Assembly (NCBI GenBank): GCA_003173895.1
Contig: PJMG01000003.1
Location: forward strand, 1-56,039
Length of the DNA: 56,039 bases
Reading direction: 5' to 3'
From: Candidatus Levyibacteriota bacterium
GTDB taxonomy: Bacteria > Patescibacteriota > Microgenomatia > Levybacterales > UBA12049
Of this stretch, positions 7,258 through 52,788 are shown one piece after another (within the stretch, counting starts at the first letter, position 1; every line of letters starts with the position of its first letter). The position numbers and the translations under genes were made by a program. The notes under the pieces were generated by a model. It saw nothing but the letters and a program-made list of their open reading frames with translations. It had not been told where the DNA came from and ran no database searches.

Positions 7258-7319
7258 ATATTTACTATAAAAAAAGATTTAGCATTTTTCAAGAATAGGT
7301 GGTATATTTAAGTTTAGTA

Positions 7320-8234
7320 ATGAAGATTTTTTCTGGAAATTCTAATATCCCTCTAGCAGAAAAGATAAGTAAAAATCTTAAGTTAAAACTTTCTCCTGTA
7401 GATAAATTTGTTTTTCCCGATGGTGAGCAAAGAATCAGAATTACAGATCAGATAACTGGTCATAAAGTTATAGTGGTTCAAAGTGCAAATACTCCTGTAG
7501 ACCAAAATTACATGGAGCTTTTCTTTCTTCTGGATGCATTGAAGCGAAATGAAGCAGAGTTTGTGACGGCAGTGGTTCCATATTTTGGCTATCAAAGACA
7601 GGATCATGTTTTTAGAGATGGTGAGGCAGTGTCGTTAGAGGTAATTATAAGGATTTTAGAGAGTTTAAAAATTGATCGACTTATCAGTATAGATATGCAT
7701 TCTGTAAAAATCCCATATCTTTTTTCAGTGCCGGTTACTCACTTATCAGCAATGCCACTTTTTGCAAATAAAATAAAAGAAATTTTTAGGGGTTCTGTCG
7801 GAAAATCCAGTGTTTTAGTTTCTCCTGATATGGGTGGAATAGCCAGAATTATGAAGCTTTCAGAATTAACTAAATTGCCTTACGCCGCTTTGAAAAAGAA
7901 CAGGAATTTAAGTACTGGTAAAGTAACAGGAGACCAAGTAGCAGAGGGAAGTTTGGAAAACAAAAAAATAGCTTTTATCGTGGATGATATGATTTCTTCT
8001 GGAAGTACTATGGCACTAGCTGCGAATAATTTAGTTAAAAATGGAATTGAAAAAATTTATGTTTTTGCTACGCACGCTATTTTCTCTGAAGAAGCACCAG
8101 ATATCTTAGAAAATGCTCCAGTAGAAAAAGTTTATGTAACAGATAGTGTTTTTATCCCAAAAGAAAAAAGATTTTCTAAATTAGAAATTTTATCGATAGC
8201 ACCATTAATTGCTAAAACAATAAAAAAACATTAA
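7320..8234 (+). CDS. prs: ribose-phosphate pyrophosphokinase
   Basis: MKIFSGNSN..LA..I start, YFGYQRQD, IVDDMISSGST PRPP loop. Confidence 0.9.
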   Translation: MKIFSGNSNIPLAEKISKNLKLKLSPVDKFVFPDGEQRIRITDQITGHKVIVVQSANTPVDQNYMELFFLLDALKRNEAEFVTAVVPYFGYQRQDHVFRDGEAVSLEVIIRILESLKIDRLISIDMHSVKIPYLFSVPVTHLSAMPLFANKIKEIFRGSVGKSSVLVSPDMGGIARIMKLSELTKLPYAALKKNRNLSTGKVTGDQVAEGSLENKKIAFIVDDMISSGSTMALAANNLVKNGIEKIYVFATHAIFSEEAPDILENAPVEKVYVTDSVFIPKEKRFSKLEILSIAPLIAKTIKKH

Positions 8235-8499
8235 CGTCTTTGCGAGCAAAGCACGGCAATCCGTGATATGTATAAAAAGCAAGGATATACTTATATTCTA
8301 ACTAACATAACAAATAAGGTTTTAGATACAGGTTCTACAGATAATCTAATAAAAAGGATTTATATGATGAGATTATAAAGTAATATTCTTTTCTTTTTAA
8401 GACTAAGATTGTTTATTTTTCAAATATAAAGTAGTATTTAACTATTATTTACCTAGATTGCTTCGTCCTGAATAAATCAGGACTCGCAACAACGACGAG
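8235..8499 (+). mobile_element. decayed GIY-YIG-bearing element bounded by family G inverted repeats
   Basis: Left end cgtctttgcgagc..gcaatccg; right end (reverse complement) cgtcgttgttgcgag..gaagcaatc; encloses a truncated GIY-YIG ORF. Confidence 0.55.
8268..8378 (+). pseudogene. truncated GIY-YIG nuclease-domain remnant (36 codons)
   Basis: MYKKQGYTYILTNITNKVLDTGSTDNLIKRIY resembles the Y.YIL.....LY.G.T.NL..R motif; the second Tyr is degenerate and the stop is premature. Confidence 0.45.
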
Positions 8500-8508
8500 A
8501 GTACTTTT

Positions 8509-9117
8509 ATGAAAACACCAAAAGCAATTGAAAATTTAATTAATTCTTTTGAAAAGCTTCCTGGTATGGGACATAAAAGTGCTCAAAGACTTACTTTTTA
8601 TCTCCTGCATGTCCCACAGACTCAGTTAGATAGTTTTGCAGAAAGTTTAAAAAACCTAAAGACTAAAACTCTCTTCTGTTCTAACTGCATGATGATTGAT
8701 GAAACAGATCCGTGCAGTATTTGTTCAGATTCTAGCAGGGATCAAAATATTATTTGTGTGGTAGAAGATCCTGTAGATGTTTTAGCACTGGAAAAAGGTG
8801 GAACATATAAAGGTCTTTACCACGTTCTTCACGGTAAAATAGATCCTCTAAATAATATTGGACCAGATGAAATATATTTGGAACAATTGTTCCAAAGGGT
8901 AAAGGGTGAAGGGGTAAGGGTAAAAGAAATAATTCTGGCGACAAATCCCACGATGGAAGGTGAGGCTACTGCTATGTATATAGCTAAACAGTTGAAAGCA
9001 ATAAATCCTGAGCTAAAAATTACGAGAATTGGACGCGGACTGCCAATTGGGGCTGATATAGAATATGCAGACGATATGACTCTTAAAAATGCAATGGAAG
9101 GAAGAAGTGAAATATGA
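8509..9117 (+). CDS. recR: recombination protein RecR
   Basis: LPGMGHKSAQRL HhH, C4 zinc motif CSNC..CSIC, Toprim region; F1 insertion. Confidence 0.9.
   Translation: MKTPKAIENLINSFEKLPGMGHKSAQRLTFYLLHVPQTQLDSFAESLKNLKTKTLFCSNCMMIDETDPCSICSDSSRDQNIICVVEDPVDVLALEKGGTYKGLYHVLHGKIDPLNNIGPDEIYLEQLFQRVKGEGVRVKEIILATNPTMEGEATAMYIAKQLKAINPELKITRIGRGLPIGADIEYADDMTLKNAMEGRSEI
8895..8914 (+). repeat. family F G-rich 20-mer (F1) in frame in recR
   Basis: aagggtaaagggtgaagggg; 19/20 identical to 14372-14391; translated RVKGEG. Confidence 0.7.
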
Positions 9118-13064: not shown

Positions 13065-14561
13065 ATGAAATTAAAAATTTATAACACTAAATCCAGAACT
13101 GTGGAGGAATTTAAACCATTAAAAGATAAAGTAGTTAATCTTTATGCTTGTGGAATGACTGTTTATGATAATGCGCATATAGGTCATGCCAAAAAATATA
13201 TTGGGGATGATATTTTAATTCGTGTTTTAAAACATGCAGGTTATAACTTAAAACACGCCATGAATGTTACTGATGTGGGACATTTAACTTCAGATCAGGA
13301 TACAGGGATGGATAAAATGGAAAAAGGTGCACGAAAATATGGACTGTCAGTTTGGGATGTAGCTAAAAAATTTGAAGCACAATTTTGGGATAGTATGGAT
13401 GCAGTTGGAAATAATCGTCCTGATATTTTAATGCACGCAACTGATTTTATTAAAGAACAAATGAATCTGATAAAAATTTTAGAGAAAAAAGGCTATACTT
13501 ATACCATAGAAGATGGAGTCTATTTTGATACTTCTAAATTTCCACATTATTTTGATCTATCTCATCAAAATCCAGAAGAATTAAAAAAAGGCGCGAGAGT
13601 AGAATTCGTCGCAGGTAAAAAAAATGTGGCAGATTTTGCACTTTGGAAGTTTAGTTATCCAAAAGGAGTGAGTTTTGAAGAGTATAAGAAAGAGATTACT
13701 TCGTATTCACTCACAAAGACGGAAATTACTAAAAGGCAAATGGAATGGGAGAGTCCATGGGGTTTAGGTTTTCCTGGTTGGCATATAGAATGTAGCGCAA
13801 TGAGCTTAAAGGCGCTAACTAATTTTGACCCTTCGACTCCGCTCAGGGTCGATGGTAACTATACCATCGATATTCACACAGGTGGTATAGATCATATTAA
13901 TGTTCATCATACTAATGAAATCGCTCAAAGCGAAGCTGCAACGGGTAAAGAATTTGTTCGATATTGGGTACACCATAATTTCCTGATGGTAAATGATGAA
14001 AAAATGAGTAAAAGTTTAGGTAATATTTTCACAGTACAAGATGTAATGGAAAAAGGATTTAAGCCAATGGTTCTTCGTTATTTATTTCTAACTGGACATT
14101 ATCGATCGGAAATGAATTTTACTTGGGAAAGTTTGGAAGCAGCACAAAAAGCATATGATAGATTATTGATGGAAGTTTATAATTTAAAAGGGCATGTTGG
14201 TTCTATTAATAAAGAATTTTTATCTTCTTTTGAAGGAGCACTTTATGATGACTTAAATACTGCCAAAGCAATCGCTATTATTTGGGAATTAATAAAATCC
14301 AATATTGATCCTTCGGAAAAACTCTCTACATTAAAAATCATGGATGAAGTTTTAGGACTAAAATTGTTTGGAAGGGTAAAGGGTCAAGGGGAAAGCGAAA
14401 AGCAAGAAATACCAAAGGAAATTGAACAGTTAAAAATAAAAAGAGAGGAATTTAGAAAAAATAAAGAGTTTAAAAAAGCGGATGAAATAAGAAAAGAGAT
14501 TGAAAATAGAGGATATGAAGTAATAGATACTAAATCAGATACAGTAATAAAGAAAAAATAA
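13065..14561 (+). CDS. cysS: cysteine--tRNA ligase
   Basis: HIGHA and KMSKS motifs, GWHIECSAM; two in-frame repeat insertions. Confidence 0.95.
   Translation: MKLKIYNTKSRTVEEFKPLKDKVVNLYACGMTVYDNAHIGHAKKYIGDDILIRVLKHAGYNLKHAMNVTDVGHLTSDQDTGMDKMEKGARKYGLSVWDVAKKFEAQFWDSMDAVGNNRPDILMHATDFIKEQMNLIKILEKKGYTYTIEDGVYFDTSKFPHYFDLSHQNPEELKKGARVEFVAGKKNVADFALWKFSYPKGVSFEEYKKEITSYSLTKTEITKRQMEWESPWGLGFPGWHIECSAMSLKALTNFDPSTPLRVDGNYTIDIHTGGIDHINVHHTNEIAQSEAATGKEFVRYWVHHNFLMVNDEKMSKSLGNIFTVQDVMEKGFKPMVLRYLFLTGHYRSEMNFTWESLEAAQKAYDRLLMEVYNLKGHVGSINKEFLSSFEGALYDDLNTAKAIAIIWELIKSNIDPSEKLSTLKIMDEVLGLKLFGRVKGQGESEKQEIPKEIEQLKIKREEFRKNKEFKKADEIRKEIENRGYEVIDTKSDTVIKKK
13828..13852 (-). repeat. family C repeat (reverse orientation) in frame in cysS
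   Basis: gacccttcgactccgctcagggtcg, translated DPSTPLRVD, between GWHIECSAM and DIHTGGIDH. Confidence 0.7.
14372..14391 (+). repeat. family F G-rich 20-mer (F2) in frame in cysS
   Basis: aagggtaaagggtcaagggg translated RVKGQG. Confidence 0.7.
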
Positions 14562-31380: not shown

Positions 31381-32379
31381 ATGGATATTAAAGAAAATAT
31401 AATTTTAGCTCCATACACGACTTTTCATATTGGTGGTCCTGCGGATTATTTTTTAATAGCTAAAAATACGCAGGAATTAATGGATGGAATTAAATGGGCG
31501 GAAGAAAAGAATATTTTATTTTTTATTTTAGGAAGCGGGGCAAATATTTTAGTGGGGGATAAAGGATTTAGAGGATTGGTGATCAAAAATGAGAGTTCAC
31601 AGGTCACAGTTAAAAGTTCACAGGAAGTGTCATTACTTACTGCGGATTCGGGAATTACTATTGCTGAGTTAATTACAATAACCACAGAAAAAGGACTTTC
31701 AGGTTTGGAGCATTTTGCTGGAATTCCATCTACTTTAGGTGGAGCAATTTGGCAGAATTTACACTTTTTATCCGCTGATCGATCGGAAACTGTTTTTATC
31801 GGAGATATTTTAGAAACAGCTATCATAATTCCAAATGTTACGTCTTTGCGAGGAACAGAAAGTGACGAAGCAATCTCAAAAGGATTGCCACTCGAACAAA
31901 GTTCGCTCGCAATGACGAGGACGGTAAATAAAGATTATTTTAAATTTGCTTATGATTACAGTATTTTACACGACACTCATGATATCGTTTTATCTGCTAC
32001 TTTAAAATTAAAACCAGAATCTCGTGAAGTTATTAAATCTACTATTAATGCTAATTTAAAATGGAGAGCTGAAAAACATCCAGAAAATGCCGTGAATTGT
32101 TCAGCGGGATCAATCTTTAAGAAAATTCCTGCCCGCCTCGCAAGCGAGAGCGTTGCGGGCAGGGAAGGCGGCGCTGGACGTTTTATTCAACAAGTCGGAT
32201 TAAAAGGACATAAAATAGGTGGTGCTCAAATATCAGAAAAACATGCTAATTTTATTATTAACGCAGGAAATGCGAAGGCTTCTGAAGTTTTATCTTTAAT
32301 AAATTTAGTTAAGGAAAAAGTTAAAAAGGAGCTTGGATTAGATATGGAAACTGAAATAAGTTTGGTTGGAGAGTTCTAG
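31381..32379 (+). CDS. murB: UDP-N-acetylenolpyruvoylglucosamine reductase
   Basis: FHIGGPADYF, GSGANIL, AGSIFKK...GLKG..IGGAQISEKHANFIIN; two in-frame repeat insertions. Confidence 0.9.
   Translation: MDIKENIILAPYTTFHIGGPADYFLIAKNTQELMDGIKWAEEKNILFFILGSGANILVGDKGFRGLVIKNESSQVTVKSSQEVSLLTADSGITIAELITITTEKGLSGLEHFAGIPSTLGGAIWQNLHFLSADRSETVFIGDILETAIIIPNVTSLRGTESDEAISKGLPLEQSSLAMTRTVNKDYFKFAYDYSILHDTHDIVLSATLKLKPESREVIKSTINANLKWRAEKHPENAVNCSAGSIFKKIPARLASESVAGREGGAGRFIQQVGLKGHKIGGAQISEKHANFIINAGNAKASEVLSLINLVKEKVKKELGLDMETEISLVGEF
31841..31919. repeat. family G palindromic MITE (both GIY-YIG-element ends, no cargo) in frame in murB
   Basis: cgtctttgcgagg..gaagcaatc-tcaaaag-gattgcc..ctcgcaatgacg; translated TSLRGTESDEAISKGLPLEQSSLAMTR. 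Confidence 0.75.
32128..32163. repeat. family H GC-rich hairpin (H3) in frame in murB
   Basis: cctgcccgc-ctcgcaagcgag-agcgtt-gcgggcagg; translated PARLASESVAGR. Confidence 0.75.
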
Positions 32380-42463: not shown

Positions 42464-42481
42464 GGGTAATATTTTGATTTC

Positions 42482-42587
42482 GGGGTCCTGCCGGTTGTTT
42501 CCCTCCCGAAGGTGCTCGCAATGGGGTTAATTCTGATGAATTAAAATGCTGCGCACCATCGAGAACCCTTCCAACAACCGTCACCCC
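42482..42587 (+). repeat. family B structured element (B4), candidate 5' leader RNA
   Basis: GGGGTCCTGCCGGTTGTT...AACAACCGTCACCCC; GGTGC/GCACC and AATTC-TGAT-GAATT inner stems; TAATAT box 9 nt upstream. Confidence 0.8.
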
Positions 42588-50685: not shown

Positions 50686-50792
50686 TCGATGATTCGCCTG
50701 AAAGACGATTAGCCTTTGGCTAAAAATTTTAAAGATTAACATATTTAACAACTGGTTCGCAACGACGCTGTTTAAAATACACATCCGCGCGC
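50686..50792. repeat. composite repeat remnant (partial A-type 3' end, G-type fragment)
   Basis: cgctgtttaaaatacacatccgcgcgc resembles the A3 3' end; ttcgcaacgacg resembles the G right end. Confidence 0.45.
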
Positions 50793-52760: not shown

Positions 52761-52788
52761 CGATGTCGCGAGCGAAGCGTGGCGATCG
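52761..52788. repeat. solo family G end-like repeat
   Basis: cgatgtcgcgagcgaagcgtggcgatcg compares with cgtctttgcgagcaaagcacggcaatccg. Confidence 0.5.

Follow-up and report, generated by a model that had tools for sequence, protein, structure and literature searches.

This analysis concerns a unit that lies between the genes prs and recR on a contig from a bacterium of the candidate phyla radiation (CPR). The contig was analysed over its whole length of 56,039 bp (hereafter, the window), has a G+C content of 31% and is densely coding. Pfam identification placed prs at 7299-8234 and recR at 8509-9117, and the 274 nt that separate the two genes were found to be almost exactly filled by a 263-bp unit (8235-8497), in which two inverted CGTC-tagged hairpin arms enclose an open reading frame (ORF) of 36 codons. 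The initial annotation of this DNA had described a 265-bp unit at 8235-8499 with inverted ends around it; the unit is present and arms were found on both sides, but its length is corrected to 263 bp and positions 8498-8499 lie outside it. The components of the unit are as follows.

8235-8263, + strand: left arm, CGTCTTTGCGAGCAAAGCACGGCAATCCG, which matched the 12-nt core pattern CGTCNTTGCGAG with 0 mismatches
8268-8378, + strand: 36-codon ORF, remnant of an Ssn-type GIY-YIG nuclease gene, MYKKQGYTYILTNITNKVLDTGSTDNLIKRIYMMRL
8379-8455, no strand assigned: A+T-rich decayed rest of the gene, 77 nt
8497-8456, - strand: right arm, inverted, CGTCGTTGTTGCGAGTCCTGATTTATTCAGGACGAAGCAATC

Both ends followed a common plan, namely a CGTC tag, an outer stem TTGC...GCAA, an internal loop with GA on its 5' side and a triplet on its 3' side, and an inner hairpin specific to each end. 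In the left arm, the CGTC tag was followed by T, the outer stem TTGC/GCAA, the GA internal loop, the mini-hairpin GCAAAGC, the triplet ACG and the tail TCCG, and this arm was in the same frame as 181 arms of other genomes. The right arm was composed of CGTC, GTTG, TTGC, GA, an inner hairpin (GTCCTGA, TTTAT, TCAGGAC), GAA, GCAA and TC; it carried a 3-nt GTT/TTG duplication adjoining the tag and an inner stem of 7 bp, and its DNA fold had an energy of -8.3 kcal/mol. The inner stems of the left and right arms differed, and the two arms therefore form a heterodimer. Across the window, the arms were found to start with CGTC(T/A/G)TT.

Nuclease remnant, its intact relatives and the Ssn family

The 36-codon ORF had been read earlier as a truncated GIY-YIG N-terminus, for which a hidden Markov model (HMM) check against PF01541 had been proposed, and both the check and the reading held up. 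Against the Pfam GIY-YIG model (PF01541; profile length 78, cut-off 22.6 bits), the remnant gave a match with an E-value of 4.4e-4 and 20.9 bits, just below the cut-off, which covered profile positions 1-28 of 78. A family HMM of 96 positions was constructed from 26 intact arm-flanked proteins of other genomes and run on 2591 six-frame pieces of the window; the remnant was the sole match among these pieces, with an E-value of 1.8e-8 and 31.5 bits over positions 2-32 of 96, and the alignment paired KKQGYTYILTNITNKVLDTGSTDNLIKRIY with ekqyyvyiltnkkntvLytGvtsdlkkrvy. Additionally, the remnant was 42% identical to the first 32 residues of a gonococcal 94-aa ORF (over 31 aa; pairwise E 2e-6). The first motif, YxY, was kept in the remnant, and the tyrosine of the second motif (LYtG, the "YIG" motif) was replaced by Asp, the remnant reading VLDTGST where intact genes read VLYTGVT. 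Beyond position 32, nothing of the family profile was left, the Arg/Glu region was missing, and past RIY the reading frame of the remnant entered MMRL-stop. The following 77 nt (8379-8455) showed no significant family-HMM similarity in any frame. The peptide KIVYFS (frame +3, near 8400), which resembles KLVYYE, was considered as a second gene fragment and rejected, as its score of 0.7 bits was not significant.

A word-based protein search with a 47-aa extended translation of the remnant gave no candidate, the remnant being too decayed, and intact relatives were reached through a DNA pattern instead. This pattern, TTGCGAG-N(3-33)-GCAATC-N(5-35)-TAYNNNTAYAT, describes an arm followed by the YxYI motif and was scanned over a species-representative genome collection. 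The scan returned at least 120 loci, spread over many phyla that include CPR groups; chance matches of the order of a thousand were estimated for the whole collection, and many of the at least 120 loci are noise. Among the matches listed, to which the following counts and lengths refer, the hosts included Patescibacteria, Saccharibacteria, Melainabacteria, Omnitrophota, Chloroflexota, Bacteroidota and Nitrospirota, together with others, and 28 full-length ORFs of about 95 aa had room on both sides. In 23 of these 28 genes, an inverted arm was located 0-60 nt past the stop codon, and this second, downstream arm was not part of the scan pattern. The two arms of an intact cassette were identical in none of the 23 cases, the upstream arm always lay 6-36 nt before the start codon, and the cassettes measured 357-441 bp from outer end to outer end (median 383). 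The intact proteins were 93-99 aa in length and matched PF01541 only (E about 1e-17). The earlier proposal that the inverted ends bound intact small GIY-YIG ORFs was borne out in other genomes; the window contained no such ORF.

Because the intact cassettes span 357-441 bp (median 383) and the window unit spans 263 bp, approximately 120 bp of the gene have been lost from the window copy. Judged from its sequence, this copy is a pseudogene that retains the N-terminal third only; it is predicted to be inactive and to make no nuclease, since only the first third is kept and the catalytic tyrosine is lost. Frameshifted or split nuclease genes between intact arms were also observed at four other loci, in Patescibacteria (L024), Nitrospirota (L050), Dehalococcoidia (L013) and Draconibacterium (L074). 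Gene decay with retention of the arms is therefore recurrent, as it is seen in the window copy and at these four loci.

Several further loci of other genomes are described here in their own right. On the reverse strand of L096 (5397-5691 and 5823-6117), a complete arm-ssn-arm cassette was present twice; the two tandem copies are identical and 426 bp apart. On a Planktothrix agardhii plasmid (NZ_LR882964.1, 18847-19131; L206), a gene annotated as "GIY-YIG nuclease family protein" was 66% identical to the family consensus and was located between an MmeI-type restriction-modification gene and the DISARM gene drmA; it was flanked by the arm variant GTCATTCTGAG...AGAATC, and partial arms formed a short tandem array downstream of it. 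In two MurB relatives, more distant GIY-YIG ORFs were found directly upstream of murB, at L126:870-1338 and L128:147-402 (family profile E 2e-10 and 2e-14, respectively), without GCGAG-type arms.

The intact proteins resemble members of the Ssn family, which comprises GIY-YIG proteins of about 94 aa (CDD cd10448, GIY-YIG_unchar_3) encoded by genes with hairpin repeats on either side (Chenal et al. 2025, Nat Commun, PMC11893778). In Neisseria, this repeat is the NTS, CGTCATTCCCGCGMAVGCGGGAATCYRG, and the characterised Ssn members are site-specific nickases of single-stranded DNA (ssDNA), with binding and cutting restricted to ssDNA and the cut located upstream of the hairpin (PMC11893778). Binding depends critically on the C that follows the palindrome, and cleavage on the 3 nt that precede it; no RNA binding was found for the characterised enzyme (PMC11893778). 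The modulation of natural transformation by ssDNA cleavage in Neisseria is the only function shown, and it has already been discussed that the NTS-ssnA-NTS arrangement resembles an insertion sequence (PMC11893778). In the same paper, homology to SsnA was accepted at E < 1e-10 (PMC11893778).

To place the arm-flanked proteins relative to this family, the family consensus was compared with PLSDB, which includes two N. gonorrhoeae records, and was found to be 51% identical to the gonococcal 94-aa ORF mentioned above (E 1e-24). This ORF was surrounded by 16 NTS copies within a stretch of 3.3 kb and matched the family HMM with 123.5 bits (E 1.4e-40). A Saccharibacteria protein with GCGAG-type arms (L047) was 48% identical to the gonococcal ORF over 90 aa (E 2e-30). 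With respect to this presumed SsnA, the E-values of the family consensus (1e-24) and of the L047 protein (2e-30) were lower than the published homology level of 1e-10. The intact proteins were also remotely similar to the solved UPF0213 protein 1zg2 (E 8.5e-4), and NCBIfam contained no specific family model for them. Of the features that mark the Ssn family, the window unit has the hairpins on both sides, and its catalytic residues are altered in that the YIG tyrosine is Asp. As a side note on the database, the two N. gonorrhoeae records (NZ_CP119140.1 and NZ_CP119142.1) are labelled plasmids and are about 2.17 Mb each, a size that suggests chromosomes.

Insertion at the prs-recR junction and other arm copies

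The closest RecR relatives of the window were 76-81% identical, and the named matches were from Candidatus Levybacteria. The contigs of three of these relatives (L121, L122 and L123/L124) retain dnaX, ybaB, prs and recR in this order. The last two genes share 4 nt (ATGA) in L121 and L122 and are separated by 1 nt in L123/L124, compared with the 274 nt found here. Because the closest relative has a tight prs/recR junction, the cassette is a derived insertion, which split a gene pair that overlaps in relatives and was probably translationally coupled. No arms were found in 61 kb of L121-L124. Overall, the unit is very probably a dead Ssn cassette that entered a Levybacteria-like (Patescibacteria) genome between prs and recR. 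The relationship between the gene and its ends was published in 2025, the repeats were described in 2013, and the locus exemplifies a known system.

The window also contained arm copies away from this junction. When the core CGTCNTTGCGAG was counted with up to 2 mismatches and compared with 100 shuffles, 10 occurrences were found against 2.64 +/- 1.65 in the shuffles, none of which (0/100) reached 10. The copies outside the unit are as follows.

31841-31875, + strand: left arm of a cargo-less pair, in frame in murB (ORF 31381-32379)
31917-31883, - strand: right arm of the murB pair; the pair encodes TSLRGTESDEAISKGLPLEQSSLAMT
13694-13721, - strand: decayed arm in cysS, CGTCTTTGTGAGTGAATACGAAGTAATC, which is absent from the initial annotation
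52761-52788, + strand: solo diverged arm, CGATGTCGCGAGCGAAGCGTGGCGATCG, 38 nt past a response-regulator gene

The murB pair, like the cassette arms, was a heterodimer. It had been described as a 79-nt palindrome (31841-31919) formed by the same ends without cargo; back-to-back arms were indeed present, although the element inserted into the reading frame is 78 nt long (31840-31917), corresponding to 26 codons. This insertion was absent from solved MurB structures (residues 179-184 of 3tx1 correspond to residues 154-182 of the query) and from 9 of 10 relatives at 52-62% identity. The tenth relative, L125 (61% identical), had a GCGAG-type pair of its own, in frame and at a different position in murB, and the L125 and window pairs are independent insertions in the same essential gene. 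The L125 pair (L125:785-869) encodes TSLRATEGSAAIS..IASSPPKADPRNDN, and a second pair was observed just past that gene (L125:1631-1703).

In cysS, the decayed arm overlapped a 19-codon insertion, YPKGVSFEEYKKEITSYSL, that starts at 13656 and was absent from the CysS proteins of three relatives, including L121 at 75% identity. The solo end reported earlier at 52761-52788 proved to be real, though its tag is degenerate (CGAT); its 16-nt core, GCGAGCGAAGCGTGGC, was identical to arms in other phyla, and its outer stem showed a compensatory change from T-A to C-G. The arms of the window, the murB and cysS copies and the solo arm have persisted, either as fossils or as substrates that another copy in the genome can use.

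The initial annotation had further compared these copies to an autonomous element and its miniature inverted-repeat derivatives. What stands of this comparison is that relatives have empty sites at the positions of the cassette and of the insertions in murB and cysS, as such a relationship predicts, and that the ends also occur without cargo or alone; neither a target-site duplication nor a defined target was found. The clean empty sites of a whole cassette and of cargo-less pairs bear on whether such cassettes are mobile. For annotation, odd peptides such as TSLRG..EAIS and SSLAMT in CPR proteins are repeat-encoded insertions.

Hairpin class of the arms

Over 192 arms of other genomes, we found a conserved frame that reads Y-GTC-A-TTGC-GA-G[variable]C-G(A/T/C)(A/G)-GCAA-TC-Y-(A/C). 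Position -1 was C in 38% and T in 48% of these arms, followed by GTC and A-TT...AA-T, and the tail consisted of C, Y and A/C. Arm lengths ranged from 24 to 57 nt, with a 5-bp outer stem, an internal loop and a variable inner stem. Thermodynamic z-scores were weak for such short arms (median -0.77) because nearest-neighbour DNA parameters ignore GA/GA mismatches and GNA mini-loops, and the covariation count is for this reason the better test. Using 25 distinct 32-nt arms and 500 shuffles, we found that the inner stem was hypervariable yet paired, with both sides changed in 4 of 5 inner pairs. Compensatory cells numbered 19, against 5.7 +/- 1.8 in the shuffles (0/500), and pairing amounted to 84.8% of cells in register and to at most 57% when the partner was slid. 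The outer stem was fixed by the scan pattern, so that these arms are uninformative on its covariation; a comparison between systems revealed that it also varies in a paired fashion, namely TTGC/GCAA here, TTCT/AGAA in the Planktothrix plasmid cassette, TTCC/GGAA in L152 and TTCCC/GGGAA in Neisseria.

Upon comparison with the NTS, the arms were found to share its frame, with Y at -1, GTC, an ATT stem start and AATC followed by Y (compare CGTCATTCCCGCG..GCGGGAATCYRG; PMC11893778). In particular, the tag, the A-T stem start and the C that follows the stem are also found in the NTS, where they correspond to biochemically important positions. The two systems have in common a single-domain GIY-YIG protein of about 94-96 aa, a gene that lies between inverted hairpin repeats on both sides, repeats with a YGTC tag, an A-T stem start and a C after the stem, and many additional repeat copies scattered in the genome. 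They differ in that the stem here is TTGC-GA...GNR-GCAA with a hypervariable inner hairpin, whereas the NTS stem is continuous (ATTCCCGC), and in that the host here is a CPR bacterium in which the window gene copy is dead. Furthermore, in-frame copies occur in essential genes here, while 2% of the NTS are intragenic in N. meningitidis (PMC11893778). The published degenerate SRM string was dropped as a membership test for this hairpin variant, as it matched 0/181 arms, and the tag, stem and tail positions were compared instead.

The arms were also similar to the CGTC-tagged superfamily of repetitive extragenic palindromes (REPs), in whose four described families (CGTC-1 to CGTC-4) the stem runs uninterrupted over 8-9 bp and the loop has 4-5 nt (Di Nocera et al. 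2013, PMC3733652). This superfamily takes in dRS3 of Neisseria and RPE-4/RPE-6 of Rickettsia, and its repeats were concluded to have no dedicated transposase (PMC3733652). The shared features are an unpaired CGTC/TGTC tag, A-T pairs at the start of the stem, a short C-rich, CCA-like tail, dimers of non-identical units in opposite orientation (the murB pair and the cassette arms) and in-frame copies within replication, repair and housekeeping genes (here, murB and cysS). In contrast, the stem is interrupted here, which places the arms outside families CGTC-1 to CGTC-4, and an enzyme gene lies between the arms, whereas no associated enzyme was found in PMC3733652. By their sequence features, the arms belong to the CGTC-tagged REP superfamily, in which they would be a further family.

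Two other known systems are comparable. REPIN/RAYT and IS200/IS605 elements likewise have hairpin repeats recognised as ssDNA, repeat doublets, an enzyme gene with its own flanking repeats and no target-site duplication, but they have an HUH tyrosine transposase and a GTAG tag instead of a hydrolytic GIY-YIG nuclease and a CGTC tag. Rickettsia palindromic elements are also short palindromic DNA that enters essential genes in frame and is tolerated there as a surface loop; the in-frame copies in murB and cysS here would be a parallel case. The host phylum and the repeat sequence are different, and in the present case the repeats have a physically linked candidate partner gene.

The following points weigh against the assignment of the unit to the Ssn system and against its arrival as a mobile element. 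The gonococcal 94-aa ORF was taken as SsnA from its length, genus and NTS context and not from an accession. The published SRM string matches the NTS consensus, yet it matched 0/181 GCGAG-type arms and none of the window arms; because it misses 181/181 arms, the hairpin class described here falls outside the published search definition, and it lies outside the tested substrate range of Ssn. The family HMM found no intact nuclease gene in the 56-kb window, which is the whole contig. No target-site duplication was found at the junctions of the window copies, and the flanks of the 192 arms showed no conservation past the pyrimidine at -1 and no defined target. Finally, the insertion could stem from recombination or horizontal transfer rather than from self-mobilisation.

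For the Ssn system, the comparison means that a distinct hairpin class missed by the published search string flanks Ssn homologues in lineages that include CPR, Chloroflexota, Bacteroidota and Cyanobacteria-related groups, so that the repeat counts in the literature may be too low for this system.

Possible mobility of the cassette and alternative explanations

By analogy with the NTS, this hairpin variant would be cut in the same manner. The protein of about 95 aa would recognise the arm in its folded state on single-stranded DNA, and the recognised fold would comprise the YGTC tag, the outer stem ATTGC/GCAAT, the GA/GNR internal loop, the hypervariable inner stem and the 3' C. The nick would be placed a few nt 5' of the tag, and because the tags point outward, the cuts would fall just outside the cassette on each strand. 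Cargo-less pairs and single arms would be substrates of the same enzyme in trans. As GIY-YIG enzymes are hydrolases, host replication or repair would have to complete copying after the nick. To our knowledge, these enzymes hydrolyse DNA and do not transfer strands, and we know of no covalent intermediate for a GIY-YIG nuclease, unlike the HUH transposases.

The nuclease may in this way drive the spread or movement of the arms. We tentatively suggest that the arm-ssn-arm cassette could be an autonomous mobile element of a new mechanistic class, in which a hydrolytic nickase cuts ssDNA hairpin ends, the host completes copying and the cargo-less pairs are non-autonomous, although we hold this possibility with limited confidence. 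The earlier proposal of a GIY-YIG nuclease as the mobilising enzyme found no supporting evidence, given the lack of a target-site duplication and a published activity that consists of ssDNA nicking. If such a class exists, its members would colonise essential genes of CPR bacteria in frame and split translationally coupled gene pairs, and the window would hold a dated, empty-site-verified insertion of such an element.

A somewhat doubtful alternative, which nevertheless deserves serious weight, is that the arms are REP-like repeats that serve the host and that Ssn is a host factor, acting for example in the restriction of incoming ssDNA. The cassette and the pairs would then have arrived by recombination or horizontal transfer, with their linkage reflecting autoregulation or co-inheritance. 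The junctions without a target-site duplication or target motif agree with this explanation, as does the hydrolytic chemistry of GIY-YIG enzymes, which are not known to transfer strands. It is also in agreement with transformation modulation by ssDNA cleavage as the only function shown in vivo (PMC11893778) and with the description of CGTC REPs without a dedicated transposase (PMC3733652). However, insertions occurred at unrelated sites that include essential genes and a 4-nt gene overlap, and the related murB of L125 carries independent insertions at another position. The compact inverted-arm architecture was moreover conserved in 23 of the 28 listed full-length genes across phyla, and the whole cassette was tandemly duplicated in L096. 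These four observations look like selfish spread, and the host-factor and selfish-spread views do not exclude each other.

An RNA-level role of the hairpins is unlikely, whether in stabilising or terminating transcripts or as a cis-regulatory leader for the nuclease gene; we consider this explanation clearly weaker than that of a host factor. The constant placement of the upstream arm 6-36 nt ahead of the start codon of intact genes would suit it, covariation alone cannot separate an RNA hairpin from a DNA hairpin, and RNA roles have been proposed for many REPs (Di Nocera et al., PMC3733652). Nevertheless, Rfam gave no gathering-score match over the whole window and none at E up to 1 over 8100-8650, no terminator-like site was found, and the arms can face either way relative to transcription and also lie inside ORFs. 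The characterised enzyme showed no RNA binding (PMC11893778), and the conserved tag and the C after the stem are the positions that are critical for ssDNA cleavage and binding.

The idea that the unit is a remnant of a classical GIY-YIG homing endonuclease or group I intron is effectively refuted and has very little left in its favour. Intact homologues weakly matched the NCBIfam model "group I intron endonuclease" (E 4.4e-4, 20 bits; cut-off 56), but the intact relatives consist of a single domain, are about 95 aa long and lack a DNA-binding domain, no intron RNA family was detected with Rfam, and the unit is intergenic and bounded by inverted hairpins rather than exon junctions. Least credible of all is that the resemblance of the ORF to nucleases arose by chance or that the ORF is a genuine small gene unrelated to them: the Pfam score under the gathering cut-off and the word-based search without a candidate could be cited for it, but it is already refuted by the sole family-HMM match in the window (E 1.8e-8) and by the location of the ORF between the arms at the canonical position, orientation and spacing of the gene, and the arm core motif is enriched over shuffles.

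Apart from the copies listed above, four stretches of the window deserve mention. In the gap before a histidine-kinase gene, CGTCGTTGCGAACCAGTTGTTAAATATGTTAATC (50736-50767, - strand) may be a further decayed CGTC arm, with one mismatch per anchor. The G+C-rich stretch CCCCATTGCGAGCACCTTCGGGAGGGAAACAACCGGCAGGACCCCG (42476-42526, - strand), located between two ORFs, fits a loose arm pattern without the arm frame; it had no Rfam match at E up to 1 and could be an undescribed small RNA or another repeat. In murB, a second in-frame insertion, PARLASESVAGR (32125-32163), was absent from 10 of 10 MurB relatives. The DNA that encodes it is a palindrome, CCTGCCCGC..GCGGGCAGG, which is rich in G+C although the genome has 31%; its stem spans 9 bp, its DNA fold has an energy of -15.3 kcal/mol, and it belongs to a repeat family other than the CGTC arms. 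Similarly, a 13-residue insertion in cysS, NFDPSTPLRVDGN (13821-13859), was absent from three relatives and is encoded by a short palindrome (GACCCT..AGGGTC), which is another intragenic repeat.

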